From a virus, in the IMG/VR virus record IMGVR_UViG_3300034152_000814, positions 1 to 64,000 of that record: a DNA stretch of 64,000 nucleotides; one strand, 5' to 3'. The notes beneath the pieces were generated by a model. It saw only the letters and a list, made by a program, of their open reading frames with translations, did not search any database and was not told where the DNA came from. Each line of letters opens with the position of its first letter. Position 1 is the stretch's first letter. Position numbers and translations under genes: made by a program. Below, one piece after another: positions 44 through 49,153 of the stretch.

Positions 44-586
44 ATGGAACAAATACCATTTCCGAATAAAAAGTATCAGATTGTCTATGCTGATCCGCCT
101 TGGGATAGCAATAGCCAGTTTGGTCGAGATAAAAAAAGAGGTAATGTGCAACACTATCCGTTAATGACAATAGGGGATATAAAAAATCTTCCTGTGGAAA
201 GTGTTGCAGATGAAAACTGCGTCTTGCTTCTGTGGACAGTGGACACACAACTGCAAGACGCTTTTGACACGATAAAGTCGTGGGGTTTTACCTTCAAAAC
301 TGTTGGTTTTACTTGGGTGAAAGAAACTAAGCACGGGAAAGACCATTTCGGCGTGGGTATGTGGACAAGAAAAAACCCTGAAATGTGTCTTCTTGCAACG
401 AAGGGGAAACCGAAAAGATTTTCAGCGGGAGTTAGGCAATTACAAAGGCATAAAGTTAGGGAACATAGTCGTAAGCCTGATGAAATACGAGACGAAATTG
501 TAAGGCTTTGCGGGGATTTACCCCGAATAGAATTATTTGCCCGACAAAAGACTGATGGTTGGGATGTTTGGGGCAATGAAGTATGA
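44..586 (+). CDS. MT-A70 family N6-adenine DNA methyltransferase
   Basis: 180 aa; DPPW motif (YADPPWDS); C-terminal PRIELFARQ shared with the paralogue at 48578; strongly AT-rich relative to the rest of the window; RBS aagggggtgaaag. Confidence 0.85.
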   Translation: MEQIPFPNKKYQIVYADPPWDSNSQFGRDKKRGNVQHYPLMTIGDIKNLPVESVADENCVLLLWTVDTQLQDAFDTIKSWGFTFKTVGFTWVKETKHGKDHFGVGMWTRKNPEMCLLATKGKPKRFSAGVRQLQRHKVREHSRKPDEIRDEIVRLCGDLPRIELFARQKTDGWDVWGNEV

Positions 587-731
587 AAATTTATAAAATC
601 ACAGAAGCAAGCGAGTATTTAGGAGTGTCTATCAACATCGAGCCCGAGCACGTCGAGGTCCTCCGCGCTTCGGTACGGAAGTTGCAGCGCATGCGCTCGC
701 ACCACGATTTCTGTCGGAGGCACGGGGTACG

Positions 732-902
732 ATGATCAAGCTCACGCAGCGAGTTCTCCACGACCCGGAGAACGGTCGATACGGCGAATGCTTCCGGACC
801 GCGCTCGGTTGCGTCCTCGGGAACCGGGGCGAGGTCGTCTGGGACCCCCACCCCGGCGAGCTCCACGTTGCCGAGCTAAGTCTTCACCAGAACGTAACTT
901 AA
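732..902 (+). CDS. hypothetical small protein (56 aa)
   Basis: ATG preceded by ggaggcacgggg RBS; begins exactly where GC content jumps. Confidence 0.3.
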   Translation: MIKLTQRVLHDPENGRYGECFRTALGCVLGNRGEVVWDPHPGELHVAELSLHQNVT

Positions 903-904
903 AA

Positions 905-960
905 GAAATCCCTTGCATTCCCCTCGGAGCATCGTATCCTGTAGTGAAAGGGGAATTCCG
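905..960 (+). promoter_or_regulatory. conserved promoter+5'UTR cassette, copy A (TTGCAT-16-TATCCT, leader gtagtgaaaggggaa)
   Basis: matches the repeated element found at 60283, 61997, 63001 and 63566; -35 at 913-918, -10 at 935-940, RBS aaagggga before ATG 961. Confidence 0.55.
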
Positions 961-1110
961 ATGAGAAACGCAATCGCGATCGTGCTGGTCGTCGCCGGCC
1001 TGCTCTGGCTCGGTTCCTTGCTCGGGTCCTGCGTCGAGCGCCTGTCCGAGCGCGCGAAGGACGCCGGCGGATTCGTCGGTTGCGCCTACAACCCGGAGAC
1101 CAACGAATGA
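961..1110 (+). CDS. small membrane protein (49 aa)
   Basis: hydrophobic stretch IAIVLVVAGLLWLGSLLG; directly downstream of cassette copy A. Confidence 0.45.
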   Translation: MRNAIAIVLVVAGLLWLGSLLGSCVERLSERAKDAGGFVGCAYNPETNE

Positions 1111-1235
1111 GACGATGGAGAGTGTTCTTCGGCGACGGGTCGTCCGTCGTCGTGGCCGCCGACGACGCCGACGAGGCTGTCAAGGTGGCGTTCGACCACT
1201 ACCGGCAGCGCGGCGTCCGAGCGGAGATGTGCTGA
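1107..1235 (+). CDS. hypothetical small protein (42 aa)
   Basis: ATGA overlap with upstream stop and TGATG overlap with the next gene; below the ORF-track size cut-off. Confidence 0.3.
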   Translation: MRRWRVFFGDGSSVVVAADDADEAVKVAFDHYRQRGVRAEMC

Positions 1236-1462
1236 TGAGTCGCAACCTATGCCGTCACAACTGCGCCTACTGCGAGTCGGACGTACGGCTCGACGAGGAG
1301 CCGCGCTTCGCGACCGCCGAGGATTGCGGCAGGTACTTCAGCGAGTACGCCACCCTGATCGTCGCGCGCGCGACGTGCCCGCTCTGCGAGGCGAAGGCGA
1401 GGGAGGCGGAGCGCTGGTACGAAGTAATCTGCGACGAATGCACAGGGAGGGTATGCAGATGA
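1235..1462 (+). CDS. Zn-ribbon protein (two CxxC pairs)
   Basis: CRHNCAYCE ... CPLCEAK ... CDECTGRVC. Confidence 0.45.
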   Translation: MSRNLCRHNCAYCESDVRLDEEPRFATAEDCGRYFSEYATLIVARATCPLCEAKAREAERWYEVICDECTGRVCR

Positions 1463-1806
1463 AGTGCGCTTGCTTACTCGCGCTGGTCCTGCTGACCGGC
1501 TGCTCGACGATCGACCTACCTGAAGAACCGCTGACCGACCGCCCTTCCGCGTCGGCGGCCCGCGCGGTGACGGAAGCGTGGGCCAAGAAGTACATGAAGG
1601 ACCCGACGTCGTTCCTGGTCCGGAACGTGACGGAGCCGAAGGTACGGCGCCGACCGGGCCCGCTCTTCGGGCTGGTCCGGGGGCGGATAGGCTGGAGCTG
1701 GACGGCGGAGCTCAACGGGAAGAACGGCTCCGGCGGGTACGCCGGCTGGACGACGTACCGGTTCTACCTGTTCGCGGACGGGAGCTGGTGGGGGACGGTA
1801 TGGTAG
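1453..1806 (+). CDS. lipoprotein
   Basis: signal peptide plus lipobox LLTGCS. Confidence 0.55.
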   Translation: MQMKCACLLALVLLTGCSTIDLPEEPLTDRPSASAARAVTEAWAKKYMKDPTSFLVRNVTEPKVRRRPGPLFGLVRGRIGWSWTAELNGKNGSGGYAGWTTYRFYLFADGSWWGTVW

Positions 1807-2060
1807 CGTACGGACTCATCCTCAGCGTCGCGGCTGCGGTCGCGTTCACCGCGGTGATGGTGGCGATCGCCAACACCGTCGGACGCGGTAGTATCGACGC
1901 TCCGCGCCGCGTCCCGCGTGGCGGTACGGAGGGGACTGTGAGCCCCAACGACGTACTGGAAATCGAGGTCCGGGAGGAGATCTCGGAGTTGATCGGGGAA
2001 ACGGAAGACGACGACGCGCGCGCGTTCCTGCGCCGCCTGCTGGAGCTGCTGGATGGTTGA
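1800..2060 (+). CDS. small membrane protein
   Basis: N-terminal TM helix ILSVAAAVAFTAVMVAIA; acidic C-terminus. Confidence 0.45.
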   Translation: MVAYGLILSVAAAVAFTAVMVAIANTVGRGSIDAPRRVPRGGTEGTVSPNDVLEIEVREEISELIGETEDDDARAFLRRLLELLDG

Positions 2061-2316
2061 CGCGAACGTGATAGGAACGGATCACGGGTTCCAGGCTTTC
2101 AAGCGGTTCGTGAACGACGACCGCCTCCGAACCTTGACGACCGAGGAGCAGTTCCAGGCCGGCGGGATTACCGCCGTAGCGTTCGTGGTCCACCTCGTGG
2201 AGCAGAGCGTCCACGAGTCGTGCTGGAAAGAGCACCTCGGCTCGTTGTTCGAGGCCATGCGCGTGGACGCGGAGAAGATCCTCCGCGACCGGCAACGGAG
2301 AAGGGAGACGGGATGA
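2053..2316 (+). CDS. hypothetical protein
   Basis: ORF in the co-directional operon; ATGG overlap. Confidence 0.4.
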   Translation: MVDANVIGTDHGFQAFKRFVNDDRLRTLTTEEQFQAGGITAVAFVVHLVEQSVHESCWKEHLGSLFEAMRVDAEKILRDRQRRRETG

Positions 2317-2876
2317 CGTTCGGACTCGCGATCGACATCGTGCTGCTGATCTGCCTGTTCCTCGTGACGTCCGCGTTGTGGAAGTTCATGGACCGGACGG
2401 ACAATAATTTTCGTCGCGTCAAGGACGGGCTCTCGAAGCAACTCAGCGTCCTCCGGCGTGAGCTCGACGAGACGGACCGACGACTGGACGTCGTCTCCGA
2501 CGAGGTGGAGCGATTCACCCTCCCGCCCGAGGGGGAGATCACCGTACCACCCGGAACCCTGCGCTCCAAGTTGCTGATCCTCGCGCCCGTGAGCCTGCTC
2601 GTCGGCTGCGGGACGATCTCCTGGACGAACGCGCCGGACCTCGACCTCGCGCTGACGCGCGTCGAGATCTGGCGCGACGACGTCCTGATCTACGGGATGA
2701 CGCTCAACGCCGGCGACGTGTCGATGGACCCCCAGAAGCGGGTCTGGGTATACATCCCGAAGGATTGGAAATTCGAGAAGGGCGTCGAGTACCGCCTCCG
2801 CGCCCGCCACGTGGACGCCGCCGGCAACGTGGGCGACTGGTCCGACTGGTACGAGTTCGAGGGAAACGATGAATGA
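2313..2876 (+). CDS. membrane-anchored protein with C-terminal beta-sandwich (FN3-like) domain
   Basis: RBS aagggagacgg; TM helix AIDIVLLICLFLVTSALW; C-terminal YRLRARHVDAAGNVGDWSDWYEFEG. Confidence 0.5.
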   Translation: MTFGLAIDIVLLICLFLVTSALWKFMDRTDNNFRRVKDGLSKQLSVLRRELDETDRRLDVVSDEVERFTLPPEGEITVPPGTLRSKLLILAPVSLLVGCGTISWTNAPDLDLALTRVEIWRDDVLIYGMTLNAGDVSMDPQKRVWVYIPKDWKFEKGVEYRLRARHVDAAGNVGDWSDWYEFEGNDE

Positions 2877-3344: not shown

Positions 3345-3381
3345 TGCCTAAGTACCAATACGTCGGCACCGACGAGGGACG

Positions 3382-4635
3382 GTGGAAATGAAGCGTCCGA
3401 AGGTCATAAGCCTTTTTACGGGCGCCGGGGGCTTGGATCTCGGCCTTGAAGCTGCCGGATTTGAGTTGGCTGTCGGGGTAGAATTTGACCCCGAAGCAGT
3501 CGCTACCCTCCGCGCAAATCGGAACTGGCCGATTATTGACCGCGACATACACGAGGTTCCGACCAAGGAGCTGCTCGAGGTCGCGGGGCTTCGCGAGGGC
3601 GAAGCCGATCTCCTCGCTGGTGGGCCGCCCTGTCAGCCCTTCAGTAAATCGGGCTATTGGGCCAGTGGCGACGCCGGCAGACTCGAGGACCCGAGAGCGA
3701 CAACTCTTGAGGCGTTCCTTCGAGTGCTGAGGGACACCAAGCCGAAGGTCTTCTTACTTGAGAATGTCTCTGGGCTTGCATACCGAAACAAGAATGAAGG
3801 CCTGGAGCTTCTCCGAACTACGATTGACGAAATCAACGAGGCCGCCGGCACCGCATACTCGTTCCAATCTTCGGTAATCAACACCGTAGAGTATGGTGTA
3901 CCGCAGGAGAGGGAGCGGTTCTTGGTAATAGGCCACAGAGACGGCGCCTGTTTTGAGTTTCCTAAACCAACTCACACGAAGCCCAAGAAGCAGCGAGGAA
4001 CTCGCCGGAGTTCCTCGGAAGACAAAGATCTCGAGCCGTTTCACACGGCTTGGGACGCGATTGGCGACCTTCAGGAGGACGGCAGCGCCGAGTTGAGAAT
4101 GACTGGCAAGTGGGCAGACCTTTTGCCCTCAATTCCCGAGGGCGAGAACTATCTCTACCACACTGACCGGGGCGCAGGCCTTCCGCTTTTTGGTTGGCGG
4201 AGAAGATATTGGAGTTTTCTTCTCAAGCTATCCAAGCGTCTCCCGTCTTGGACCATAACTGCTCAGCCAGGCTCAGCCATAGGGCCCTTTCATTGGAAGA
4301 ACCGACGTATCTCCATGAAGGAGCTATGCAGGCTTCAGACGTTCCCCGACGACTACGAGATCCTTGGTGGCCGCACCTCCTATCAAAAGCAACTTGGCAA
4401 CGCTGTCCCGGCTGCTTTAGCAGAGAAGCTTGGGCTGGAGATTCGTAAAATGCTTGGTCACGACGTGCGCCGCAGAAAGCTCAAGCTCCTGCCGGCTCGT
4501 CGAACGCCTGTGCCTCCGGCAGAACGCTCTCGAAAGGTTCCACAGAAGTACATGGAGCTTGTCGGCGAACACGAGGCACACCCAGGAACAGGTAAAGGAT
4601 ATGGGGCATTAGCCAGAACTCAAAACCAAAGCTGA
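3382..4635 (+). CDS. dcm: DNA cytosine-5 methyltransferase
   Basis: C5-MTase motifs I FTGAGGLDLG, IV PPCQPFS, ENV, QLGNAVP; lower GC than neighbouring genes. Confidence 0.9.
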   Translation: MEMKRPKVISLFTGAGGLDLGLEAAGFELAVGVEFDPEAVATLRANRNWPIIDRDIHEVPTKELLEVAGLREGEADLLAGGPPCQPFSKSGYWASGDAGRLEDPRATTLEAFLRVLRDTKPKVFLLENVSGLAYRNKNEGLELLRTTIDEINEAAGTAYSFQSSVINTVEYGVPQERERFLVIGHRDGACFEFPKPTHTKPKKQRGTRRSSSEDKDLEPFHTAWDAIGDLQEDGSAELRMTGKWADLLPSIPEGENYLYHTDRGAGLPLFGWRRRYWSFLLKLSKRLPSWTITAQPGSAIGPFHWKNRRISMKELCRLQTFPDDYEILGGRTSYQKQLGNAVPAALAEKLGLEIRKMLGHDVRRRKLKLLPARRTPVPPAERSRKVPQKYMELVGEHEAHPGTGKGYGALARTQNQS

Positions 4636-4716
4636 GACGGGTTCATGGCGTCAAGGAAGCGCACCAAGTCGTTCCCCAAGAAGAAGGACCGGAAACGGGC
4701 GCGCAAGCGCGAGCTC

Positions 4717-4750
4717 GTGCTTGACGCTACGTCAATCCGTGGTATACTTC
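4717..4750 (+). promoter_or_regulatory. sigma70-like promoter TTGACG-16-TATACT
   Basis: near-consensus hexamers upstream of gene 4835; same CTTGACG -35 flavour as the cassette family. Confidence 0.4.
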
Positions 4751-4834
4751 TACTGGAAAGGGGTCCCGGTTGGTACCCACCCAACCCCCTTTCACACAAC
4801 ACCGACCGGGGCCCCGTATTGAAGGGAGACCGAG

Positions 4835-5398
4835 ATGGAAGTTGAAACTTTCGAGATCGAGGAGGCCGTCGGCGAGGCGCTCGGGACCACGCCGGAGATC
4901 GAGGCCGAGGCCCTGGAGCTCATCGAATCGCTGGGACTCGAGGGGCAGAGCAAGCTCGTCGTCAGGAACGAGGAGACCGGCGACGACGAAAGGATCCCCT
5001 ACCCCGAGATGACGAAGGCCGAGGTCGAGACATACCAGGCCCGCTTCCCGGTCTCGGATAAGGTGGAGAACTACTCGATGGGGATCATCCCCGTCCGCGT
5101 CCTCCAGGTCGTCGGGCACGCGCGCGGGATCTTCGAGGAGGTCTACGTCTGGCACGACCGGGTGCGCGACCCCGACCCGATCCTCGTCGGGAAGTCCGAC
5201 AAGGTGTACTACCTCCTCGCGAGGTGGGGCGACGCGCTCAAGAGCTTCGCGGAGGTCAAGGTGGAGGCCGCGACGAAGTTGCGGGAGGACTGGGAGCGGA
5301 AACTGAAGGCGAAGATCGGGGAGTGCCAGTCCTTCCTCGCCTCGCTGGACGCGAAGGTCGAGGAGAAACTGGCCGGCGAGTGGGTGTTCCTGCCATGA
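4835..5398 (+). CDS. hypothetical protein (187 aa)
   Basis: RBS gaagggagaccgag; acidic N-terminus. Confidence 0.55.
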   Translation: MEVETFEIEEAVGEALGTTPEIEAEALELIESLGLEGQSKLVVRNEETGDDERIPYPEMTKAEVETYQARFPVSDKVENYSMGIIPVRVLQVVGHARGIFEEVYVWHDRVRDPDPILVGKSDKVYYLLARWGDALKSFAEVKVEAATKLREDWERKLKAKIGECQSFLASLDAKVEEKLAGEWVFLP

Positions 5399-7566: not shown

Positions 7567-7811
7567 ACGCCACGCAACTACGGGAGATGCGGGAAACCCA
7601 CGAGTTCCTCTGGATCAGCGAGCTCGCCGAGATGCTCGAAGCCTCCCCGCACGTGGTCCGGCGGCTCGCCCACGCCGGCAGGCTGCCCGCGGTGAAGCTG
7701 CCGAACGGCACGATCCGGATCCACTACCGACGGGGGGAGGACCCGAGGGGGTTCGGCGCGGACGTCGAGCTGTGGAGCCGTCCGAAGAAAAGAGTTGACA
7801 AGGGCGACTGA
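7554..7811 (+). CDS. excisionase/MerR-like HTH DNA-binding protein
   Basis: ISELAEMLEASPHVVRRLAHAGRLPAVKLPNGTIRI helix-turn-helix. Confidence 0.6.
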   Translation: MRRLNATQLREMRETHEFLWISELAEMLEASPHVVRRLAHAGRLPAVKLPNGTIRIHYRRGEDPRGFGADVELWSRPKKRVDKGD

Positions 7812-7869
7812 GAACGGTACCGTGGAATCGACATGATAACCCGAGCTCATAGAACGTCGATGCAGGGAG

Positions 7870-7901
7870 CCCGAGGGGGCGCACAACCCTCGGGCGTTTT
7901 C
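7870..7901 (+). terminator. rho-independent terminator
   Basis: CCCGAGGG-9nt-CCCTCGGG followed by CGTTTTC. Confidence 0.6.
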
Positions 7902-7993
7902 ATGTCGCAAGCTCAATTCCCAATTGAGCTTACTTCGTCACTGGGCGTTTTCATGTCGCAAGCTCAATTCCCAATTGAGCTTACTTCGTCACT
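7892..7993. repeat. two tandem 51-bp direct repeats, each with palindrome GCTCAATTcccAATTGAGC
   Basis: exact repeat read directly from the sequence; period 51. Confidence 0.9.
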
Positions 7994-8335
7994 TTACGCT
8001 TCGTAAAAGCGAAGAGCGGGATAGCCCCTTATCCCGCAAGGGTTTACTTCACTCACTTCACACACTTTACCGTTTCAAATCGCCAGGAAGTACGTGACGA
8101 TATGCTCACGCACTTCCTGGTAACTTTTTTATATAAAGTGTGTGAAGTGTGTGAAGTAAGTATATACAGTAGTTATAGTTATCTCTCTCTTTACTATAAA
8201 GTAAAGTAAAGTAACGAAGTAAATATAAGGGGTGTATGTAGTTAGCGCCCACTTCTATTTTAGCAGGAAGTTAGGTCTCTTACCGTCGGAAGCTCGAACT
8301 CGCACTTCCGGGCTCCGGTGCGGTAGAATCGAGGC

Positions 8336-8530
8336 ATGGCGCGGATATGGTCGGCTCACCGCTGCGACCGCTGCGGGCTGACGGGCCTGGCGGTCGGCGA
8401 CGCGGCGCTGCCCCCGGGCTGGGAGGCGGCTGCCGTGGGCGACGCGCGCCGCGACCTCTGCGCGAACTGCGCGGCGAAGGTCTCGCGGGCGTTGACCGAT
8501 CCGCCAAGTACTGGTACAATAACCATCTAA
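8336..8530 (+). CDS. small Cys-containing protein
   Basis: CDRCG ... CANC pairs. Confidence 0.4.
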   Translation: MARIWSAHRCDRCGLTGLAVGDAALPPGWEAAAVGDARRDLCANCAAKVSRALTDPPSTGTITI

Positions 8531-8558: not shown

Positions 8559-9017
8559 ATGGCGGCTCGTAGCATACTGGCCAAGAAGAAGTTAGAGACC
8601 TTCCTGAAGTCCCTGGCATTCACCGGGGAGAAGATCAACTCGGCCGACGCGGCGGGGATCCCTTGGAGCACGCTGGAGAAGCGGATCGCGCGCGACCCGG
8701 GTCTGAGGGGCCGAGTCGACGAGGCGATGTCCCGCTTCCACGAGAGGATCGAGAGCACGGTGCGCGGCCGGGGGATCGAGGGTTGGGAGGAGCCGGTCTT
8801 CTGGCAGGGCGAGGTCGTGGGGCACGTTCGGAAGTACTCGGACCGGTGCCTCGAGATGCTGGCGAAGCGCCACATCGCGGAGTACCGGGACAAGATGCGG
8901 ATCGACGCCTCCGTCCAGGGGGGCGTCCTCGTCGTTGGTGGAATGATGGACGAGGACGAGTGGGTCGAGACGTACGGTGGTAAGCAAGCTGACGAAGACG
9001 AAGGGAGTCAGGAATGA
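8559..9017 (+). CDS. putative terminase small subunit / HTH protein
   Basis: 152 aa with acidic C-terminus; position upstream of terL. Confidence 0.45.
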   Translation: MAARSILAKKKLETFLKSLAFTGEKINSADAAGIPWSTLEKRIARDPGLRGRVDEAMSRFHERIESTVRGRGIEGWEEPVFWQGEVVGHVRKYSDRCLEMLAKRHIAEYRDKMRIDASVQGGVLVVGGMMDEDEWVETYGGKQADEDEGSQE

Positions 9018-40518: not shown

Positions 40519-41883
40519 TTGATGGCTAAGCGCACACGTGGGAAGAATATACCTACCGACAAGGTCGACGAGATCGTCCGTCTCCGGAAGCGCGGTCTCA
40601 GCACGCGCGAGATCGGGAAGGAGGTTGGAACGGACGCCGGTACGGTATCTCGCGTCGTGGAGAAGTACATGCCTAACGGCGGCGCGAAGGGAGGTCCCCC
40701 ACCTGACGATATGGAGGTTGGGAAGATCTACGATCGCCTCGACGTGGACGGTTCCGTCGAGATCCTCACTGCCGACCACGTGATGAGCGAGGAGGAGATG
40801 ATCCGCCTCTGCAAGCTCGATCCCAAGAAGTGGATCCCCCAGTTCTACCGCGGCAACGTCTGGCAGAACTTCTACCGGAACAAGGAGAGGACCGGGCACC
40901 GCAAGGTCGCCCTCTGCCAGAGCCGGATCGTGTGCAAGCGCGTGATCACGGAGCAGCTCGAGGAAGCGATCCACGCGTTCATAAAGGAATTCGGACCGAA
41001 GCCCCTCCCGAAACCGAAAATCGGGCGCCGTAAGCGAAAAACGAAGAAGGGGCAGATGGTCTCCTGGGGCATGTGGGACGCCCACGTCGGGTCGTACGCC
41101 TGGAACAGGGAATGCCCGGACAGCTGGGACGTCGACACGGCGTGCAACCGCGTGTGCCATTCCGTTGACGAGATGGTGGAGGAGCTCCAGGACTACCCGG
41201 TGCAGAAGATCCTCATGCCGATCGGAAATGACTTCATGCACTTCGACAGCGTCAGGCTCACCACGGCCTTCGGTGACCATTTCCTGGACACCGACACGCG
41301 CTACGCCCGGGTGTACCAGGCGGCGCTGATCTGCCTGTCGTACCAGGTGGAGAGGGCGCTGGAGATCTGCGACGACGTCGAGCTCCTGTACGTCCCGGGG
41401 AACCACGACACGACGTCGAGCTTCACCTTGACGGTGGCGCTCGCCCAGCGGTACCGGAACGACCCTCGGATCTCGGCGGACCTCGCCATGAACCCGAGGA
41501 AGTACCGGCTCTGGGGCGGCGTGCTCCTCGGGTTCGACCACGGGCGGGACGCGACGCCCGACAGGCTCGCCCAGGCCCTCGCGGAGGAGGCGATCGAGTA
41601 CTGGTCGAGGTCGACCTACCGTGAGATCCAGGTGGGCGACAAGCATCGGAAGTGGGAGAAGAGATACGAGGCGACGATCCCGACGAACGGCGTCACGATC
41701 TACCGCCACCCGGCGCTCTGCAATACCGACGCGTGGCACCACCGCCACGCGTTCGTCGGCGAGCCGATGAAGAGCGTGGAGGCCCGTCGCTACGACCACG
41801 TCGGGCTACGGGGGACGCACGTCACATGGGCCCGGGACGACGACCACGCGCGCGTGAAGGGTGCGCTGAAGCGTATCACGTAG
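40519..41883 (+). CDS. HTH domain + calcineurin-like metallophosphoesterase
   Basis: N-terminal RLRKRGLSTREIGKEVGTDAGTVSRV; LLYVPGNHD phosphoesterase motif. Confidence 0.6.
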   Translation: MMAKRTRGKNIPTDKVDEIVRLRKRGLSTREIGKEVGTDAGTVSRVVEKYMPNGGAKGGPPPDDMEVGKIYDRLDVDGSVEILTADHVMSEEEMIRLCKLDPKKWIPQFYRGNVWQNFYRNKERTGHRKVALCQSRIVCKRVITEQLEEAIHAFIKEFGPKPLPKPKIGRRKRKTKKGQMVSWGMWDAHVGSYAWNRECPDSWDVDTACNRVCHSVDEMVEELQDYPVQKILMPIGNDFMHFDSVRLTTAFGDHFLDTDTRYARVYQAALICLSYQVERALEICDDVELLYVPGNHDTTSSFTLTVALAQRYRNDPRISADLAMNPRKYRLWGGVLLGFDHGRDATPDRLAQALAEEAIEYWSRSTYREIQVGDKHRKWEKRYEATIPTNGVTIYRHPALCNTDAWHHRHAFVGEPMKSVEARRYDHVGLRGTHVTWARDDDHARVKGALKRIT

Positions 41884-41910: not shown

Positions 41911-42231
41911 ATGGCAGGTCAAGCACCGATTCTCAAGCTCCGCTCCGGCGCGCTCCAGGTCGCCGCGTGGAAGAACACCGGCGAGAAGGGCGACTGGTTC
42001 TCGGTCAAGCTCGAGAAGAGCTACAAGGACGCCCAGGGCAACTGGCAGCGGACCCAGAGCCTCACGAACCGGGACCTCCTCGCCGCGGCACGACTCCTCG
42101 AGACCGCCTGGGACTACCTGAGCGCCCACATCACGATCGAGGGGAAGGACCAGCACCCCGTGGGCTTCACGCCCCGGACGGGCGGACAAGTTCGCGCACC
42201 GCAACCGCAGGGTGACGACTGCCCGTTCTGA
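41911..42231 (+). CDS. hypothetical protein
   Basis: RBS gaagggagatgg. Confidence 0.5.
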   Translation: MAGQAPILKLRSGALQVAAWKNTGEKGDWFSVKLEKSYKDAQGNWQRTQSLTNRDLLAAARLLETAWDYLSAHITIEGKDQHPVGFTPRTGGQVRAPQPQGDDCPF

Positions 42232-42322
42232 GTGGTATGATGGGAGGTACATTCCATCCTCCCTTCACCGGGTCCGGGGCGGAGGTGCGCTCCGGACCCA
42301 CCTTTGATTACCGGAGAAAATC

Positions 42323-42550
42323 ATGGTAGTAGGATGCAGGGAGCTCTCCGAAGCCTTCGACGACTACCCCGGGTGCTGCGACTCGTGTCACGAGGACGAG
42401 GCCGAGTTCGGGTACGACATGTGCGAAGCCACGATCGGGACCGTCCTCGTGCGGGCGTGCTGCCGCGTCGTGAACTGGATCCACGGCACGGAGAGGGCCT
42501 GGGAGCAGGAGATCCTTGATTATGTCAACGCCAACCGAGAAGATCTGTAG
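42323..42550 (+). CDS. Cys-rich small protein
   Basis: GCCDSCHED ... CCRVV. Confidence 0.45.
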   Translation: MVVGCRELSEAFDDYPGCCDSCHEDEAEFGYDMCEATIGTVLVRACCRVVNWIHGTERAWEQEILDYVNANREDL

Positions 42551-43046
42551 GTCCACCGATTACTTCACGCCGCCGCGTATCCTGGATCCGGTGAGGGAGT
42601 ACTTCGGGGGTCGCATCGATCTCGACCCCGCCACGACGTGGGAGAATCCGACCGGCGCGAGGCGCATCCATACGCCCGCCAATTCCGGGCTCGACGCCCA
42701 GTGGATCCCCTACCGCGTCTTCGTCAATCCCCCGTACGGCAGGGTCCTCCGGCGATGGGTGGGGAAGATCTACGAGGAGTCCCGGAAGGGCTGCGAGATC
42801 GTCGCCCTCCTGCCCGGGCAGCGGTTCGAACAGAAGTATTGGCAGGTCGAGGTCTTCAACCCTACCTTGATCGGGTTCTGTATGGTACGGAAGCGCGTCT
42901 CGTTCCTGCGACCCGACGGGACGGTAGCCAAGGGGAACCCGTACGGTAGCTTCGTCTATCTGTATAATGGGGATTTCACGCGGTTCGAGAAGGCGTTCTC
43001 CGAGGTCGGACTCTGCATCCGGATCGACTACGACGATGAGATTTAA
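42522..43046 (+). CDS. phage Dam-type N6-adenine DNA methyltransferase (T1 Dam-like)
   Basis: DYFTPPRILDPVREYFGGRIDLDPA and VFVNPPYG. Confidence 0.8.
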   Translation: MSTPTEKICRSTDYFTPPRILDPVREYFGGRIDLDPATTWENPTGARRIHTPANSGLDAQWIPYRVFVNPPYGRVLRRWVGKIYEESRKGCEIVALLPGQRFEQKYWQVEVFNPTLIGFCMVRKRVSFLRPDGTVAKGNPYGSFVYLYNGDFTRFEKAFSEVGLCIRIDYDDEI

Positions 43047-44508
43047 GACCGAACCCTTCGCACACCAGCGCGAGGAGTGGGATCTCAGCCGGGACTTCGA
43101 GACGCGCGCGTTGTTCTGGGAGATGGGCACCGGGAAGTCCAAGACCACGATCGACACCGCCGCGCACCTCTACGAGACCGGCAAGATCGACGCCTTCCTC
43201 GTCGTGGCTCCCAACGGCGTCCACACGAACTGGGTGAACGACGAGCTACCGGCGCACATGCCCAACGAGGTCCCGTTGCGGGCCTTCGCGTACTCCTCGA
43301 AGCGAGCGAAGACGAAGAAGCACCAGCGCGCGATAGACGCCGTGCTCCACCACGACGGGCTCGCCTTCCTCGGCATGTCCTATAGCGGGATTATGACGAA
43401 GGCGGGTCGGGCGTTCGCCAGGAAGTTCCTCGAGCGGCGGAAGGTCTTCTACGTTCTCGACGAGAGCCAGCGAATCAAGACGCCCGGCGCCAAGCGGACG
43501 AAGGCGCTGATCGCCTCGGGCAAGCTGGCGACCCACAAGCGGATCCTCACAGGGACGCCGATCACCAAGAACCCATTCGACGTCTACACGCAGCTCCGGT
43601 TCCTGGACGCCGATTTCTGGAAGGCGCACGGCTTCGCGTCGTTCCAGGCGTTCAAGACTCATTTCGGGATCTGGCAGGAGCGGATCAACGGCGCCACGGG
43701 GCAGCGGTTCCCGGACCTCGTCGCCTTCCGGGACCTGCCGCGGCTCAAGGAGATCGTGGGAACCATCGCGTCGAGGATCACGAAGGACGAGGTCCTCGAC
43801 CTGCCGCCGAAGCTCTACTCGAAGCGGTACTTCGACCTGAGCTCGGAGCAGGCGCGCCTCTACCGGGAACTCCGCGACGAGTACATCACGTTCCTCGGTT
43901 CCGGTGAGATGGTGACCGCTCCCATGGCGATCACCCGCCTCCTACGGCTCCAGCAGGTGCTATGCGGCTACCTGCCCGGGGACGACTCCGATCGCCTGAC
44001 GCTCCTCGACGAGAATCCTCGCCTCGATCTGCTCCGCGAGATCGTGAACGACCTGGACAAGGCGGCCATCATCTGGGCCCGGTTCCGGCAGGACGTGGAC
44101 CAGATATGCGGACTGCTCGGGGATCGGTGCGTCCGGTACGACGGCAAGGTCGGCGAGGACGACCGGGAACTCGCGAAGCGGCGCTTCCAGGGAGGCGACG
44201 TCCAGTTCTTCGTCGGTAATCCCGCGGCGGCGGCTACCGGACTCACGCTGCACGCGGCGAGCACCGCGATCTACTACTCGAACTCGTTCGACCTGGAGCA
44301 CCGCCTCCAGTCGGAGGACCGGAACCACCGGATCGGGCAGGACGGCGAGATCATCACGGTGGACGAGGACGGGAACCCCGTTGTGGGCGTGAGCTACATC
44401 GACGTCCTCGCCCACGGGACCGTCGGGCCCTACATCGTGCGGGCCCTCCGGAACAAGAGGAACGTCGCCGCGGAGATCACGGGGGACGAGCTTGCATCCT
44501 GGCTCTGA
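43036..44508 (+). CDS. SNF2-family helicase
   Basis: Walker A MGTGKSKT, DESQRIKT, helicase-C RNHRIGQ. Confidence 0.85.
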   Translation: MRFKTEPFAHQREEWDLSRDFETRALFWEMGTGKSKTTIDTAAHLYETGKIDAFLVVAPNGVHTNWVNDELPAHMPNEVPLRAFAYSSKRAKTKKHQRAIDAVLHHDGLAFLGMSYSGIMTKAGRAFARKFLERRKVFYVLDESQRIKTPGAKRTKALIASGKLATHKRILTGTPITKNPFDVYTQLRFLDADFWKAHGFASFQAFKTHFGIWQERINGATGQRFPDLVAFRDLPRLKEIVGTIASRITKDEVLDLPPKLYSKRYFDLSSEQARLYRELRDEYITFLGSGEMVTAPMAITRLLRLQQVLCGYLPGDDSDRLTLLDENPRLDLLREIVNDLDKAAIIWARFRQDVDQICGLLGDRCVRYDGKVGEDDRELAKRRFQGGDVQFFVGNPAAAATGLTLHAASTAIYYSNSFDLEHRLQSEDRNHRIGQDGEIITVDEDGNPVVGVSYIDVLAHGTVGPYIVRALRNKRNVAAEITGDELASWL

Positions 44509-44530
44509 CGTGGTACAATGGTGGCGTGGA

Positions 44531-45109: not shown

Positions 45110-45158
45110 CGAGAACGAGCGTACCGAGTATTCAACTTCAACGAGAAAGGAACCAATC

Positions 45159-45971: not shown

Positions 45972-46014
45972 CACCCAATTCCCAAGCGAGGCGGCCTGAC
46001 CCACCGCCTATACG

Positions 46015-46038
46015 CCCGGGGGGTGCGCACCCCCCGGG
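46015..46038. repeat. perfect 24-bp palindrome CCCGGGGGGTGC|GCACCCCCCGGG
   Basis: read directly; sits at the boundary of the AT-richer island. Confidence 0.9.
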
Positions 46039-46057
46039 CCCCTTCCTTGAAAGGATA

Positions 46058-46873
46058 GTGATGCGCTCATTCTTCCGGTACCCTGGAGGTAAAGCGAAGC
46101 TGTACGCGCCGATTGCCGCCGCACTTCGGCGCGTGGCTCCTGTCGCCACACGATACGTTGAGCCGTTCTTCGGTGGTGGGAGCATCGGTATTCGCTTCCT
46201 GACAGAAGCGCCGGGAATTGTGTCGGCGGAGCTCAACGATCGGAACGACGCGCTTATCGCACTCTGGCGAAGCGTTCAGAAGTTCCCGAACGCCCTGAAC
46301 CGATGCATAACAGATTTCGTACCGACCCCGGACGCTTTCTATGAAATACGGGAAATTCTTCTCGATGTTGAGCGGCGTCAGTCCATTCCGTTGGTTCGTC
46401 GAGGTTTCTTCGAGCTGGTAATCCACCAAATATCATATTCCGGCCTCGGTGTGAAGTCCGGTAGCCCGCTTGGGGGGCGGGCGCAGGCGTCCAAGTACAA
46501 GATCGATTGCCGGTGGTCCCCGGACTACCTATGCCGACGGATACACGAGCTCCATCAGCTATTCAACTCGCTGCGCGTGGTGTTCACGTCTCAACATTTT
46601 AGCGCGTGCCTCCCGACCAGTCCGGATTCGGTTACGTACTTGGATCCCCCCTACTACCATCGCGGTAATGATCTGTATCAATTCGGTTTCACCCAAATGG
46701 ACCACGAGGAACTCGCCGCCCTCCTTCGACGTGGACCTAACTGGGTCCTATCGTACGATGACTGTGAAGAGATCCGTGATCTCTATTCATGGGCGAAAAT
46801 CGAGGAACTCGAGACGAACTACTCCATCACGACGGCACGTCGCCGTAGAGAAATCTTAATCACATGGCGATAA
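46058..46873 (+). CDS. D12-class (Dam-like) N6-adenine DNA methyltransferase
   Basis: YPGGK, EPFFGGGS, DPPYY motifs; AT-richer than the flanks. Confidence 0.85.
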   Translation: MMRSFFRYPGGKAKLYAPIAAALRRVAPVATRYVEPFFGGGSIGIRFLTEAPGIVSAELNDRNDALIALWRSVQKFPNALNRCITDFVPTPDAFYEIREILLDVERRQSIPLVRRGFFELVIHQISYSGLGVKSGSPLGGRAQASKYKIDCRWSPDYLCRRIHELHQLFNSLRVVFTSQHFSACLPTSPDSVTYLDPPYYHRGNDLYQFGFTQMDHEELAALLRRGPNWVLSYDDCEEIRDLYSWAKIEELETNYSITTARRRREILITWR

Positions 46874-47391
46874 GAGTCACAATATGTCCGGAAGACTACG
46901 CACGATGCGCAGAGTACGCGGAGACGTGCATGTGCGCTAAGAAACGTGGAACTACGTTCAACGAGGGATGCATCAACAACTCACAAGATCCGTACCGGGC
47001 GCAGCGGATTGGGAAGCTCGGGGAAACTGCTTTCGGGCGTCACTTCGGTTACCCCGTTGATTATAAGTATAGGCGATTCGGCGATCGGCAGGATTTTATC
47101 GTTGGAAAGAAACGCGTCGACGTGAAGACATCATCGTATTCTCGCGCGTCTGTCGTTTTCCTGCGCGTCCGTCACTCGAGCGGATCCCCCATCCTGATTC
47201 GGCACGACGTGTATGTCCTCGCACGGCTCGTACACGAGGACCGAGAAGCTCAACAAGCGGTGGTGGATCTTTGCGGTTATTGTACCCGGGAGGACGTCGA
47301 GCGCCTCCCAGAGGTTCCAGCACGGCGTGGACATCACGTCAATATCGAGATACCCTTCAAGGGGCTCCGAAAATTCAGGGAAGAACGATGA
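46864..47391 (+). CDS. candidate PD-(D/E)XK nuclease
   Basis: GETAF ... QDFIVG ... VDVKT spacing fits E / D / (D/E)xK; overlaps the MTase stop. Confidence 0.45.
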   Translation: MAIRVTICPEDYARCAEYAETCMCAKKRGTTFNEGCINNSQDPYRAQRIGKLGETAFGRHFGYPVDYKYRRFGDRQDFIVGKKRVDVKTSSYSRASVVFLRVRHSSGSPILIRHDVYVLARLVHEDREAQQAVVDLCGYCTREDVERLPEVPARRGHHVNIEIPFKGLRKFREER

Positions 47392-48581
47392 ACTGGTCCC
47401 CCCAGCAACGACGAGCCCTCGACGCCGCCGGCGCGTGGCTCCGGAACGGCGACAGGCAGGTCTTCCGCCTGTTCGGGTACGCCGGCACCGGGAAGACCAC
47501 GCTCGCGAAGCGCCTCGCGGAGGGGGTGGGCAAGGTCCTCTTCGCGGCGTACACCGGCAAAGCGGCGCTCGTCATGCGCCGGGCGGGCTGTCCCTGCGCG
47601 TCGACCCTCCACTCCCTGATCTACCGACCGAAGGAGAAGAGCCGGGCGCGGCTGATTGAGTTGGTAGCGATCCAGCGGGAGCTCGAGGCGAGCGACAGCC
47701 CGGACGACGCGGAGCCCTTGCGCCGGATCACCGGGGAGATCGAGGCCGAGCGGAAGCGCGTACGGGAGCCCGGCTGGGATCTGAACCCGGACAGCGCGCT
47801 CCGGGACGCCGACCTCCTCGTGATCGACGAATGCTCGATGGTCGGTGAGCGGATGGCCCGAGACCTGCTGAGCTTCGGGACGCCGATCCTCGTGCTCGGG
47901 GACCCCGCCCAGCTCCCACCGGTGAGGGGGACGGGATTCTTCACGGACGCCAAGCCCGACGCGATGCTGACCGAGATTCACCGTCAAGCCGCGGACAACC
48001 CGATCATCGAGCTCGCGACGTGTGCCCGCGAGGGGCACGAACTGCGTCCAGGATCTCACGGTGATAGCCTCGTGATCCCGCGGGCGGAGTTCGACAAGAG
48101 TACGATCGAGCGGGACACCCAGATCCTCGTCGGTCGGAACAGGACCCGACGGAAGGGTAACGAATTCCGGCGAAAATCGCTTGGTTTCGGGCACGAGCTG
48201 CCCGAGGCGGGGGATCGACTCGTCTGCCTGCGAAACAACCACGACCTCGGGCTCCTCAACGGCGCGATCTGGTACGTGGAGGATGCGATCGACGAGAACT
48301 GCGACACGGTGGACCTTCGCGTCTCGAACGAGGACGACGGCGACGAGCTCGTCGTGCCGGTCCACGTGGCTCCCTTCCGCGGGGAGGAGCCCCCGCCGTG
48401 GAGCTGGCGGGACGCGGAGCTCTTCGATTACGGCTACGCGATCACCGTCCATAAATCGCAGGGATCCCAGTGGCCGGAGGTCTGCCTCGTCGACGAGAGC
48501 GCGTGCTTCCGGAAGGACAGGTGGAGGCACCTCTACACGGGCATCACGCGGGCAGCGGAGAAGGTGACGGTAGTGATATGA
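47388..48581 (+). CDS. Dda/RecD-like SF1 helicase
   Basis: GYAGTGKTT, LLVIDECSM, AITVHKSQGSQW. Confidence 0.85.
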   Translation: MNWSPQQRRALDAAGAWLRNGDRQVFRLFGYAGTGKTTLAKRLAEGVGKVLFAAYTGKAALVMRRAGCPCASTLHSLIYRPKEKSRARLIELVAIQRELEASDSPDDAEPLRRITGEIEAERKRVREPGWDLNPDSALRDADLLVIDECSMVGERMARDLLSFGTPILVLGDPAQLPPVRGTGFFTDAKPDAMLTEIHRQAADNPIIELATCAREGHELRPGSHGDSLVIPRAEFDKSTIERDTQILVGRNRTRRKGNEFRRKSLGFGHELPEAGDRLVCLRNNHDLGLLNGAIWYVEDAIDENCDTVDLRVSNEDDGDELVVPVHVAPFRGEEPPPWSWRDAELFDYGYAITVHKSQGSQWPEVCLVDESACFRKDRWRHLYTGITRAAEKVTVVI

Positions 48582-49153
48582 AATTCAAATTGATTTACGC
48601 TGATCCCCCCTGGCAATACCGTAATTCTCAAAAATCCAAGAAATTCAGTGGAACCGCCGCGTCGGCTTACGAGACACATTCCGATTCCGATATTAGTGCA
48701 TGGGATGTCGGCTCCATTGCCGATGCGAATTCGTTGTTGTTCCTATGGGCGACGTTCCCGAAGATGCCGGAGGCCCTCTCCGTCATGGCGGCGTGGGGCT
48801 TCAAATTCGTGACCGCCCCTTTCGTCTGGAACAAGACGTACGCGAGCGGGAAACCGTTCTGCGGTGTAGGTTTCTGGACCCGAAACGCCGCGGAGGTCGT
48901 GCTCCTCGGGCGACGTGGAAAAGGTCTGCCGCGAATCGCACGCGGCATCCGACAGGTCGTGACGGCGCCAGTGGAGAGACCCCACAGCACTAAGCCAGCG
49001 ATCGTACGAAGCCGGATTATAGAGCTCGTCGGCGATGTACGACCACGGATCGAATTATTCGCGCGACAGGAGACGGAGGACTGGTATGCGACGGGACTTG
49101 AGCTCGATGGACGCCTCCTCACGGACGCGATCCAATACTACACCGCTCTATGA
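48578..49153 (+). CDS. MT-A70 family N6-adenine DNA methyltransferase (paralogue of gene 44..586)
   Basis: YADPPWQY; PRIELFARQ; ATGA coupling. Confidence 0.85.
   Translation: MKFKLIYADPPWQYRNSQKSKKFSGTAASAYETHSDSDISAWDVGSIADANSLLFLWATFPKMPEALSVMAAWGFKFVTAPFVWNKTYASGKPFCGVGFWTRNAAEVVLLGRRGKGLPRIARGIRQVVTAPVERPHSTKPAIVRSRIIELVGDVRPRIELFARQETEDWYATGLELDGRLLTDAIQYYTAL

Follow-up and report, generated by a model that had tools for sequence, protein, structure and literature searches.

A siphophage genome related to Mesyanzhinovviridae with five DNA methyltransferase genes, four of them very probably of horizontal origin

The window analyzed here (the whole stretch of DNA, 64,000 nt) was found to encode five DNA methyltransferases of four families, while zero to two per genome were counted in the sampled relatives. 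Self-methylation against host restriction was the best explanation of this load, and the explanation as a whole is considered moderately probable. In this phage, the cassette for 5-hmdU-based thymidine hypermodification that related phages of its clade use against restriction has been lost.

Results

The sequence-only reading had counted five DNA methyltransferases of four classes. This count was confirmed, as all five open reading frames were recovered on the + strand (Table 1) above the Pfam gathering thresholds, and all five proteins matched PHROG families of the type "DNA methyltransferase". Two of them had been described as paralogous MT-A70 enzymes sharing DPPW and PRIELFARQ; both motifs were present in both proteins, which were 41% identical (E = 4e-42). 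The catalytic motifs, for which mutation had been raised as a concern, were intact in all five, namely, DPPW in both MT-A70 enzymes, NPPY in the PF05869 protein, FGGG and DPPY in the D12 enzyme, and FTGAGG, PPCQ, ENV, QERER, and GNAV (motifs I, IV, VI, VIII, and X) in the C5 enzyme. A sixth amino-methyltransferase motif in a real coding frame was not found in the window. The gene identities of the five methyltransferases are regarded as practically certain.

The first MT-A70 enzyme matched phrog_359 (E = 1.6e-81) and the PADLOC model MTase_II (E = 3e-66), with metagenome homologues of up to 93% amino-acid identity, and the PF05869 enzyme matched phrog_111 (E = 1e-24) and the PADLOC orphan methyltransferase model (E = 2.5e-13). 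The D12 enzyme, with PD-Lambda-5_B as its best PADLOC model (177 bits), was 100% identical to protein P0121 of a 64,545-nt JGI contig; beyond this match, identity to homologues was 53% or lower. No cultured-phage homologue of the five exceeded 54% identity (48% for the second MT-A70 enzyme), and no Mesyanzhinovviridae phage was among the matches listed. The PDB matches of the C5 enzyme, to HaeIII and HhaI, covered its catalytic domain only. Since PDB similarity spanned catalytic domains only and the TIGR/NCBIfam equivalog cut-offs were not reached, the target motifs were not predictable.

Table 1. Coordinates of the methyltransferase genes and neighboring features in the window.
Position (nt)	Strand	Feature	Details
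1..637	+	Island A, foreign low-GC segment	GC 0.35-0.46; left edge cut by window start
44..586	+	MT-A70 N6-adenine methyltransferase 1	180 aa; DPPW; PF05063, 104 bits
583..735	+	Recombinase gene, 5' remnant	Right breakpoint of island A (~nt 637)
~3345-4845		Low-GC segment around C5 gene	
3382..4635	+	C5-cytosine methyltransferase	417 aa; PF00145, 194.9 bits; TIGR00675, 175.8 (cut-off 100.65)
42522..43046	+	PF05869 (phage T1 Dam-type) N6-adenine methyltransferase	174 aa; NPPY; 40.4 bits (cut-off 28.1)
42967..44508	+	SNF2-family helicase, YuA gp02 homologue	Pfam SNF2-rel_dom and Helicase_C; 45% identity
46058..46873	+	D12-class (alpha) N6-adenine methyltransferase	270-271 aa; DPPY; PF02086 MethyltransfD12, 71.4 bits
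46864..47391	+	PD-(D/E)XK restriction-endonuclease-fold nuclease	175 aa; overlaps D12 stop codon and helicase start codon
47388..48581	+	Dda/RecD-like helicase, YuA gp06 homologue	52% identity; Pfam AAA_30 and UvrD_C_2
48578..49153	+	MT-A70 N6-adenine methyltransferase 2	191 aa; DPPW; PF05063, 79.8 bits; phrog_359, E = 8e-61
49107..49580	+	ORF of unknown function in the low-GC island of MT-A70 2	~157 aa; GC 0.534, GC3 0.53
50650..51126	+	dUMP hydroxymethylase (DUHMT, YuA gp17 homologue), 3' remnant	~C-terminal 140 residues

The window probably comprises nearly all of a ~64.5-kb uncultured siphophage genome, with about 545 nt of the source contig lying outside it. This is suggested by the JGI contig mentioned above, in which both the D12 and the nuclease proteins are on record, and by the two window ends, which belong to the same early region and have repeated elements in common. 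The phage is related to Mesyanzhinovviridae (YuA, Ab18, PaMx11, and Epa5) at order or family level. Identity to YuA was 61% for TerL, 70% for the major capsid protein, 59% for Pol, and 47% for primase, with the gene order kept and no tested core protein above 70%, and Pol was 63% identical to those of PaMx11, Epa5, and Lucjan. In the IMG/VR and JGI collections, the best identity for Pol, TerL, and helicase was 63%. As in Mesyanzhinovviridae (YuA, M6, and Lydia; Ab18, PaMx11, Lucjan, and Epa5), TerL, portal, major capsid, and tail genes were present, together with those for SNF2 helicase, gp04/gp05, Dda-like helicase, PolA, and primase-helicase in the same order; unlike in that family, a nucleoside-deoxyribosyltransferase-like gene was located in place of dCMP deaminase. 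Pam3 gp33/gp34-like domains were also present. The SNF2 helicase, whose alignment to YuA gp02 begins at 43042, serves as a backbone anchor 3' of the PF05869 gene, and the Dda/RecD-like helicase anchors the backbone between islands C and D.

The PF05869 gene occupied the second position in the replication operon, directly 5' of the SNF2 helicase gene, and a promoter-like site with a strong hairpin was located nearby at 42212-42299. ATGA overlaps were observed at 47388 (nuclease stop and helicase start) and 48578 (helicase stop and second MT-A70 start), and separate promoters or terminators for the methyltransferase genes were not found. The methyltransferase genes lie within the early and replication transcription units, with translational coupling in part. 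Therefore, the enzymes would be made during phage DNA replication.

Base composition was compared with a reference set of 71 backbone genes (GC 0.652 ± 0.028, GC3 0.855 ± 0.055). Several methyltransferase genes had been described as AT-richer than the backbone, and this held for four of the five, which were below all 71 backbone genes in both GC and GC3. The first MT-A70 gene was the most extreme (GC 0.418, GC3 0.36; z = -8.4 and -9.0), with milder deviations in the D12 (0.556, 0.63), C5 (0.565, 0.61), and second MT-A70 (0.569, 0.66) genes. The PF05869 gene was backbone-like (GC 0.610, GC3 0.83) and is thus outside any AT-rich island. In a 1-kb windowed profile, the check that the earlier reading had proposed for the islands, the deepest GC troughs fell on the four low-GC genes. 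An additional trough at ~7.5-9.0 kb was mostly intergenic. The ORF that follows the second MT-A70 gene had no match in Pfam, PHROG, or PADLOC; a nuclease-family relationship was considered from a local motif (GERGEE...SDLV...RVELRT) and found no support (BLAST E = 0.5, hhalign probability 0.15).

Horizontal acquisition, the second part of the earlier proposal, was supported directly for the first MT-A70 gene and by composition for the C5, D12, and second MT-A70 genes. Island A was 86.7-86.8% nucleotide-identical over 637-638 nt to four metagenomic phage contigs (L182-L185) with a GC content of 40-48% and an unrelated PolA/PDDEXK/SNF2 backbone. At its right breakpoint, the first 18 codons of the truncated recombinase gene were 100% identical to those of a recombinase gene located 3' of the MT-A70 gene in L182 and L183; beyond these codons, the sequences diverged. 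The gene in these two contigs encodes a MerR-HTH and YARCST..Q, and from sequence inspection the remnant is taken to be that of a putative IS607-like serine-recombinase gene. For the D12 and second MT-A70 genes, acquisition was also backed by their absence at the syntenic site in relatives. The D12 gene opens island C, which is inserted between homologues of YuA gp05 and gp06, and was missing at the corresponding site in YuA and seven syntenic IMG/VR loci, while the second MT-A70 gene occupies the position of the YuA ribonucleotide reductase gene. None of the five methyltransferases was found in YuA or these seven loci. That the four low-GC genes were acquired horizontally is considered highly probable. 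They would have been inserted recently, either into the variable early region or between adjacent genes of the replication operon, and the PF05869 enzyme would have resided in the genome for longer, its composition having drifted to backbone values. The term moron in its strict sense was not supported, as no excess of promoters or terminators was found beside the islands and the genes were translationally coupled to replication genes.

Mesyanzhinovviridae are characterized by 5-hmdU-derived thymidine hypermodification (PMC5889632, PMC8989533, PMC11946847), which passages in PMC5889632 and PMC6449724 describe as protective against restriction. In the related family, all 33 classified members are reported to have thymine-modification genes. 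In the window, no homologue of YuA gp07-gp15 was found, and ribonucleotide reductase, 5-hmdU kinase, PLP, and radical-SAM genes and a full DUHMT gene were absent. The DUHMT remnant matched residues 249-330 of 351 in YuA gp17 (42% identity, E = 7e-14) and positions 217-340 of 357 in phrog_5131 ("thymidylate synthase"), with no Pfam thymidylate-synthase match, and dozens of relatives aligned to it by their C-termini alone. Full-length DUHMT was present in 34 of 42 unique Pol-anchored relatives. A methyltransferase was found in three of the eight loci without a full-length DUHMT match and in two of the 34 with one, a weak anti-correlation (Fisher p = 0.04, phylogenetically uncorrected). We tentatively suggest, from one genome and this marginal p value of 0.04, that the methyltransferase load might substitute for the lost hypermodification, although this is rather doubtful.

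The D12 gene was paired with a gene for a nuclease of the PD-(D/E)XK fold, a pairing that is conserved; neither Pfam nor PADLOC contains an entry for this nuclease family. Because of this pairing, the five methyltransferases are not all orphan protective enzymes. It is slightly favored that the pair constitutes a compact type II restriction-modification cassette, with the nuclease as candidate restriction enzyme and the D12 enzyme providing modification in a mobile unit of two genes. Such a pair could cut unmethylated DNA of the host or of competing phages while its own DNA is protected. Alternatively, though this is unlikely, the pair may be a selfish mobile element rather than a functional restriction-modification system, in which a homing endonuclease spreads the cassette among related phages, or the nuclease acts in recombination or repair, and the D12 enzyme guards only the carrier's own site. 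As in known pairs, the D12 gene adjoins, and overlaps with, the gene of a small nuclease within a mobile element. The best PADLOC model for the D12 protein comes from PD-lambda-5; however, the partner here has a PD-(D/E)XK fold, whereas the PD-lambda-5 partner is reported with a HEPN domain (preprint 10.1101/2024.10.26.620412).

Recognition sites were also counted. CTAG was wholly absent from the window (0 observed, 37-50 expected), and GGCC, CAGCTG, and CTGCAG were depleted. Therefore, at least those sites are handled by avoidance and not by methylation. GATC was abundant (679 sites, observed/expected 1.19; 10.6 per kb compared with 4.5-5.4 per kb in relatives), with 12 sites in one 200-nt stretch.

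Discussion

An anti-restriction role of the methyltransferases was judged somewhat more probable than not. If active, the enzymes would modify progeny DNA at several adenine motifs and a single cytosine motif, and this methylation would shield the phage from type I-III restriction systems of the strains it meets. The broad anti-restriction protection proposed earlier is plausible as an interpretation of the gene content.

The earlier reading had also raised epigenetic marking for packaging or replication, for which nothing was found in support. The methyltransferases could serve the phage's own biology as a packaging mark, as Dam does at phage P1 pac, or in the timing of replication or expression, and the location of three of the five genes within the replication module, the GATC enrichment, and the GATC cluster agree with such a role. 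However, none of these genes is present in relatives that share the packaging and replication machinery, and because four of the five were imported recently from foreign sources, a conserved process cannot depend on them. Moreover, the GATC cluster lies in the tape-measure gene, far from terS, and GATC targeting by these enzymes is a supposition. This role is considered improbable. Equally low weight is given to the possibility that some or all of the genes are functionless passengers, hitch-hiking phage fragments bound to decay. Island A, with a truncated recombinase gene beside it, is a recombination scar, the nearby DUHMT fragment indicates that gene remnants are tolerated, and the composition of four of the genes has not drifted toward backbone values. 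Against this, all five proteins are full-length relative to the Pfam models, with every catalytic motif intact and no frameshift or internal stop in any, and homologues of the first MT-A70 enzyme are abundant (76-93% amino-acid identity; 8000 at E ≤ 1e-10), which suggests purifying selection.

It is also quite unlikely that the methyltransferases counter methylation-sensing non-classical defenses (such as BREX or DISARM), with the host mark being copied so that the phage escapes. The C5 enzyme scored highest with the PADLOC cytosine-methylase models Druantia DruM (E = 1.7e-80) and DISARM DrmMII (E = 2e-51), and the D12 enzyme with PD-Lambda-5_B; however, these profiles are generic for C5 and D12 enzymes, and type II methyltransferase models scored nearly equally. 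Self-methylation against host restriction is retained as the preferred explanation.

Phage orphan methyltransferases, reportedly reviewed by Murphy et al. in 2013 ("Bacteriophage orphan DNA methyltransferases"), are used against restriction, as exemplified by the Dam enzymes of T1, T2, and T4. Like these, the genes described here encode small stand-alone MT-A70, D12, PF05869, and C5 enzymes with intact motifs in early or replication regions; unlike them, there are five enzymes of four families in one genome, including one that is not an orphan. Many methyltransferases along with site-specific endonucleases are found in chloroviruses. Methyltransferases are also accumulated in a 105-kb metagenomic phage contig (D12, N6_N4, and C5 enzymes with an EcoO109I-like restriction enzyme) and in the "Quimbyviridae" gut phages (four within 7 kb; PMC8008677). 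In these, as here, several adenine and cytosine methyltransferases share one viral genome, in some cases together with partner endonucleases, but the genes in the window are scattered in separate low-GC insertions and not clustered, and the backbone is that of a clade that usually depends on thymidine hypermodification. As phages with several methyltransferases were already known, this genome is a clear case of an established anti-restriction strategy and not of a new type of system.

Results

Identity of the five methyltransferases

The sequence-only reading had proposed five DNA methyltransferases (MTases), and all five open reading frames were found where it had placed them, each scoring above the gathering threshold of its Pfam family (see table). 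All five fell into "DNA methyltransferase" families of PHROGs and into type II or orphan methyltransferase models of PADLOC, and the catalytic motifs, for which mutation had been considered, were intact in every translation. The two MT-A70 proteins covered profile positions 1–172 of PF05063 (cut-off 23.9 bits), carried DPPW, and were, as suggested, paralogues (41% identity, E 4e-42) with PRIELFARQ in both. In a search of PDB sequences, their nearest solved structures were the ciliate MTA1 DNA 6mA complex and METTL3, from which no specificity is readable. The C5 enzyme exceeded the cut-offs of PF00145 (22 bits) and TIGR00675 (175.8 against 100.65 bits), and motifs I (FTGAGG), IV (PPCQ), VI (ENV), VIII (QERER) and X (GNAV) were read in its translation. 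The PDB sequence searches gave alignments to HaeIII, HhaI, MTA1 and METTL3 over catalytic domains only, and nothing for the PF05869 protein. A six-frame motif scan and a tblastn search with the beta-class MTase of the relative Lucjan gave no further candidate in the window; thus, the number of MTases was set at five.

The "Dam" naming held only at the level of broad families. The PF05869 protein passed the Pfam cut-off with NPPY in place and scored 27.6 bits against the T1-type Dam equivalog cut-off of 97.05 (TIGR01712); it is best described as a predicted, distant T1-type Dam member. Similarly, the D12 protein exceeded the PF02086 cut-off (22 bits) and contained FGGG and DPPY, while it remained below the subfamily and equivalog cut-offs for GATC-methylating Dam (TIGR00571, 75.8 against 114.85; NF008152, 27.9 against 441). 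Because these NCBIfam cut-offs were missed, GATC methylation should not be assumed for either protein.

Coordinates, strand, assignment and composition of the features discussed
Feature	Position (nt)	Strand	Assignment	GC	GC3
MT-A70-1	44-586	+	MT-A70, 104 bits	0.418	0.36
C5	3382-4635	+	DNA_methylase, 194.9 bits	0.565	0.61
PF05869 "Dam"	42522-43046	+	40.4 bits (cut-off 28.1)	0.610	0.83
D12	46058-46873	+	MethyltransfD12, 71.4 bits	0.556	0.63
MT-A70-2	48578-49153	+	MT-A70, 79.8 bits	0.569	0.66
175-aa ORF	46864-47391	+	Predicted nuclease
Small ORF after MT-A70-2	49107-49580
Small ORF travelling with a low-GC MTase	4645-4845
AT-rich stretch	7718-8498			down to 0.31
Small terminase gene	8559-9017		phrog_4044
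GATC cluster	30921-31120		Within tape-measure gene
454-aa ORF	40519-41883		"DNA repair exonuclease", phrog_704, E 1e-61
Retained ORF upstream of gp10 position	49577-50248
dUMP hydroxymethylase remnant	50650-51126		Matches gp17 residues 249-330 of 351
Deoxyribosyltransferase-like gene	53528-53974		PF05014, E 6.6e-7
431-aa ORF	57549-58844				0.89-0.90
450-aa ORF	58885-60237				0.89-0.90
Intergenic repeats, ~66 nt	903-955, 60273-60344, 61998-62060, 62999-63064, 63564-63629		78-91% identical
Repeat pair, 87 nt	61547-61632, 62549-62635		92% identical

The D12 enzyme and its adjoining nuclease

The D12 enzyme does not appear to be an orphan MTase. The 175-aa ORF that overlaps its 3' end had no Pfam, PHROG-function or PADLOC assignment, and a word-indexed homologue search returned only the protein itself. 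However, a homologue of this ORF (30–35% identity, E 1e-24 to 1e-31) came directly after, and overlapped, each of three D12 homologues (P0123, P0124 and P0148), which are carried by unrelated phage-like contigs of 30–39% GC. The overlap with the D12 3' end was observed in the window and in the loci L257/L258, L259/L260 and L261; it was not seen for the P0144 contig, which is available as protein records only. A full HMMER search collected 367 cluster representatives, with lengths of 158–314 aa among the best 150 listed. An alignment of 55 sequences gave the signature GxLGE...GDxxDF...IDVKT, in which D77 and K88 were invariant, E54 was present in 54 of 55, and position 86 was D in 42, N in 8 and E in 4. 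This combination of a PD-(D/E)XK fold with conserved catalytic residues marks the ORF as a predicted PD-(D/E)XK nuclease tied to an MTase. Nothing significant came from searching PDB sequences with a profile of the family or from scanning the 55 members against Pfam, and a single-sequence AlphaFold model, with a pLDDT of 36, was unusable. The most economical reading is that the D12 enzyme and the nuclease form a type II restriction-modification cassette that is compact and mobile and for which site-specific cleavage, blocked by the cognate methylation, is predicted.

The small ORF after MT-A70-2 resembled the nuclease by eye and was considered as a second copy; it was rejected after BLAST (E 0.5) and hhalign (probability 0.15).

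Composition and insertion sites

The 71 backbone genes of the window had a GC content of 0.652 ± 0.028 and a GC3 of 0.855 ± 0.055. Both MT-A70 genes, the C5 gene and the D12 gene lay below every backbone gene in both measures (z −3 to −9), as did the 175-aa ORF and the two small ORFs travelling with the low-GC MTases, and the PF05869 gene was indistinguishable from the backbone. The proposal that the MTases sit mostly in AT-richer islands was thus borne out for four of the five.

The positions of the genes were compared with phage YuA and its relatives. In YuA, only a terminator and approximately 100 nt separate gp05 from gp06; in the window, this gap is filled by the D12 gene and the 175-aa ORF. 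MT-A70-2 begins at the very end of the gp06 homologue, its start overlapping the stop codon there, and the C5 gene and MT-A70-1 are located in the early region, which is hypervariable. A promoter-like site and a strong hairpin (42212-42299) precede the PF05869 gene with one gene in between, and the SNF2 helicase gene directly follows it. None of the five MTases occurred in the seven IMG/VR loci sharing the helicase-gp04-gp05-helicase block, and none of their families in YuA (50 kb examined) or Epa5; Lucjan has one beta-class MTase. The best homologues in cultured phages shared 54% (MT-A70-1), 48% (MT-A70-2), 36% (C5), 32% (D12) and 31% (PF05869) identity.

The islands had been called horizontally acquired morons. 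Acquisition agrees with deviant composition and with insertion between genes that are adjacent in relatives, as for the D12-nuclease pair and MT-A70-2. The strict term does not fit, as consensus scans for sigma-70-type promoter sites gave no more sites than shuffled sequence and no promoter or terminator of their own was found flanking the islands, and as the start and stop codons of the island genes overlap neighbouring genes. The islands are insertions into existing operons.

For MT-A70-1, transfer is directly visible. Nucleotides 1–637, a foreign low-GC segment, were 86.8% identical to four metagenomic phage contigs (L182–L185) with a GC content of 40–48% and a differing PolA/PDDEXK/SNF2 backbone. 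In these contigs, the gene after MT-A70 encodes a MerR-HTH serine recombinase (L182, 8645-9169; L183, 7418-8023), which we take to be IS607-like. Since positions 583-735 of the window retain exactly the first 18 recombinase codons and then diverge, a recombination breakpoint was placed at approximately nt 637. All four donor-like contigs end in or near the recombinase gene, which points to a repeated mobile element.

Phage identity and genome completeness

The window has a GC content of 64.7%, and nearly every gene is on the plus strand. Its PolA was 63% identical to those of the Pseudomonas phages PaMx11, Epa5 and Lucjan and 59% identical to that of YuA, all of which belong to the Mesyanzhinovviridae. 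A translated search with YuA genes recovered a head and tail block in YuA order, comprising terS, TerL (61%), portal, head protein, scaffold, major capsid protein (70%) and tail genes, followed in YuA order by gp01, the SNF2 helicase gp02, gp04, gp05, the Dda-like helicase gp06 (52%), Pol, gp24, gp25 and the primase-helicase (47%). Approximately 24 of the queried YuA proteins had homologues in the same order, and the probable link to this family is one by shared genes and gene order. No close relative was found in IMG/VR scans with the helicase, TerL and Pol or in a JGI metagenome scan with Pol, the best amino acid identity being 63%. Megablast against cultured phages gave a single match, to the capsid (74%), and none over 42–64 kb; no tRNA gene was found in the window. 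As the D12 protein and its 175-aa neighbour are on record in a JGI contig of 64,545 nt, and both ends of the window lie in the same early region with common repeated intergenic elements, the window probably represents essentially the whole genome.

Several other features were observed. The early region at both window ends contains intergenic repeats of approximately 66 nt and a pair of 87-nt repeats, which resemble the repeated elements annotated in YuA as "sigma70 promoter requiring phage-encoded cofactor". The AT-rich stretch, largely non-coding and GATC-free, lies upstream of the small terminase gene near a promoter-like site (8492-8520) and may serve in packaging or regulation. The exonuclease gene and two small ORFs, which lie between the gp01 homologue and the replication operon, are absent from YuA and the fetched loci. 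In the position after PolA that a dCMP deaminase occupies in YuA and 54 related loci, the window has a nucleoside 2-deoxyribosyltransferase-like gene, which had no homologue in the 181 loci searched. The two large ORFs after the primase-helicase gene have backbone GC3; they had no homologue in fetched relatives, and none of their matches to Pfam, PHROGs or PADLOC was significant.

Loss of the hypermodification cassette

In YuA and most relatives, a 5-hmdU-based hypermodification cassette lies between the Dda-like helicase and PolA; YuA gp07-gp15 include a ribonucleotide reductase, a PLP enzyme, a radical-SAM enzyme and a 5-hmdU kinase. No homologue of gp07-gp15 was found in the window, and the ribonucleotide reductase and the cassette are gone from 48581-51463. 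The dUMP hydroxymethylase (DUHMT, gp17) is reported as "present in all analyzed" members of the Mesyanzhinovviridae (PMC11946847); in the window, a full gene was absent. A remnant was found corresponding to the 3' third of the gene (residues ~235–373), to which dozens of DUHMTs of relatives align only via their C-termini; in PHROGs, it matched a "thymidylate synthase" family only at positions 217–340 of 357. No other DUHMT match occurred in the window. Taken together with the retained ORF, which is conserved upstream of gp10 in relatives, the C-terminal-only matches outline a probable deletion that begins at gp10 and takes in the first two-thirds of the DUHMT gene.

A full-length DUHMT was present in 34 of the 42 unique Pol-anchored relatives for which 4.5 kb or more of sequence lay upstream. 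An MTase was present in three of the eight relatives without a full-length match and in two of the 34 with one (Fisher p = 0.04, uncorrected for phylogeny). The loci of the relatives, approximately 20 kb each, carried at most one of the queried MTase families, against three genes of three families in the matching window region. Derived thymidine modifications, namely 5-NedU in M6 and Nalpha-GlyT/5-NmdU in PaMx11, are described as anti-restriction devices (PMC5889632, PMC8989533, PMC6449724, PMC11472151). From the lost cassette, the distribution of MTases among relatives and the three families in one region, we propose that the MTase load may substitute for the lost hypermodification. A YuA-like IMG/VR contig (L137, 8403-9995) has two tandem beta-class MTases upstream of Pol.

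Site statistics

The tetranucleotide CTAG was absent from the window, against 37–50 sites expected from a maximal-order Markov model and despite 371 CTA and 121 TAG. It was not avoided in Lucjan (47 observed, 49 expected) or Epa5 (49 observed, 70 expected); two IMG/VR loci (L073 and L074) also had none. GGCC (305 observed, 439 expected), CAGCTG (1 and 14.5) and CTGCAG (2 and 9.6) were depleted, as were AACGTT and AGGCCT. GATC was abundant, with 679 sites, an observed-to-expected ratio of 1.19 and twice the density of relatives. Thus, avoidance handles some sites, while GATC is under no counter-selection. The site statistics assign no motif to any MTase. Within the tape-measure gene, one 200-nt segment holds 12 GATC sites (mean 2.1) with no tandem repeat; the probable source of this clustering is Ala-Ile, Asp-Arg and Ile-Asp codon pairs.

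Discussion

The best-supported model has three parts. The MTases would be produced early and during replication, and their methylation of progeny DNA would shield it from the restriction systems of successive hosts. The proposed restriction-modification cassette may in addition have a role in offence or exclusion, and the whole MTase set would compensate for the loss of hypermodification.

Other explanations were weighed against this model. The MTases might place regulatory or packaging marks, as the sequence-only reading had also suggested; the location of three MTase genes in the replication module and the GATC cluster are circumstantial hints in this direction, but relatives operate the same machinery without these MTase genes, which contradicts the suggestion. 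The MTase genes could instead be non-functional passengers, a reading to be set beside the intact catalytic motifs of all five. It was also considered that the MTases mimic BREX- or DISARM-type marks, and that the D12-nuclease pair is a homing-endonuclease cassette; for the pair, the conserved PD-(D/E)XK residues and the recurrent overlap with D12 genes are the observations on which the restriction-modification reading rests.

Returning to the three-part model, its elements can tentatively be joined into a strategy swap, a reading that we hold as possible rather than probable. The phage would have deleted the 5-hmdU cassette, which all classified phages of the related family are reported to have, and replaced it with a patchwork of MTases captured from unrelated phages. 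An offensive restriction-modification cassette, with a small PD-(D/E)XK endonuclease of a widespread, undescribed phage-carried family, might be aimed at host DNA or at phages infecting the same cell. On this reading, the complete lack of CTAG would point to a restriction threat against which no captured MTase protects.

One genome displays three probable anti-restriction routes: a hypermodification that was lost and is still visible as a gene scar, five captured MTases at differing stages of drift toward backbone composition, and one tetranucleotide avoided completely. With such a genome, one can ask concretely whether MTase stacking and base hypermodification are interchangeable solutions. 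The nuclease family, with its cluster representatives, no Pfam entry and a place beside D12 methylases in phage contigs, is a candidate new family of small restriction endonucleases. For annotation, the "Dam" label should be withheld from the D12 and PF05869 genes, and a nuclease annotation is warranted for the 175-aa "hypothetical protein".

In comparison with known systems, the D12 enzyme matched best the B component of PD-lambda-5 in PADLOC (PDLC04018, PD-Lambda-5_B; E 9e-53, 177 bits). The A component of that system is reported to contain a HEPN domain (preprint 10.1101/2024.10.26.620412), whereas the neighbour of D12 in the window had no PADLOC match and a PD-(D/E)XK fold; membership in PD-lambda-5 was rejected because the partner protein differs. 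Phage orphan MTases, phage-borne restriction-modification systems and multi-MTase phage genomes are already established. Less expected are a YuA-like phage without the hallmark hydroxymethylase of its family and a family of small nucleases that is linked to D12 methylases and not yet catalogued. Quimbyviridae carry four MTases within 7 kb (PMC8008677), and the 105-kb phage contig of P0144 holds D12, N6_N4 and C5 MTases and an EcoO109I-like restriction enzyme within 4 kb; both have several MTases per phage genome, as does the present phage.
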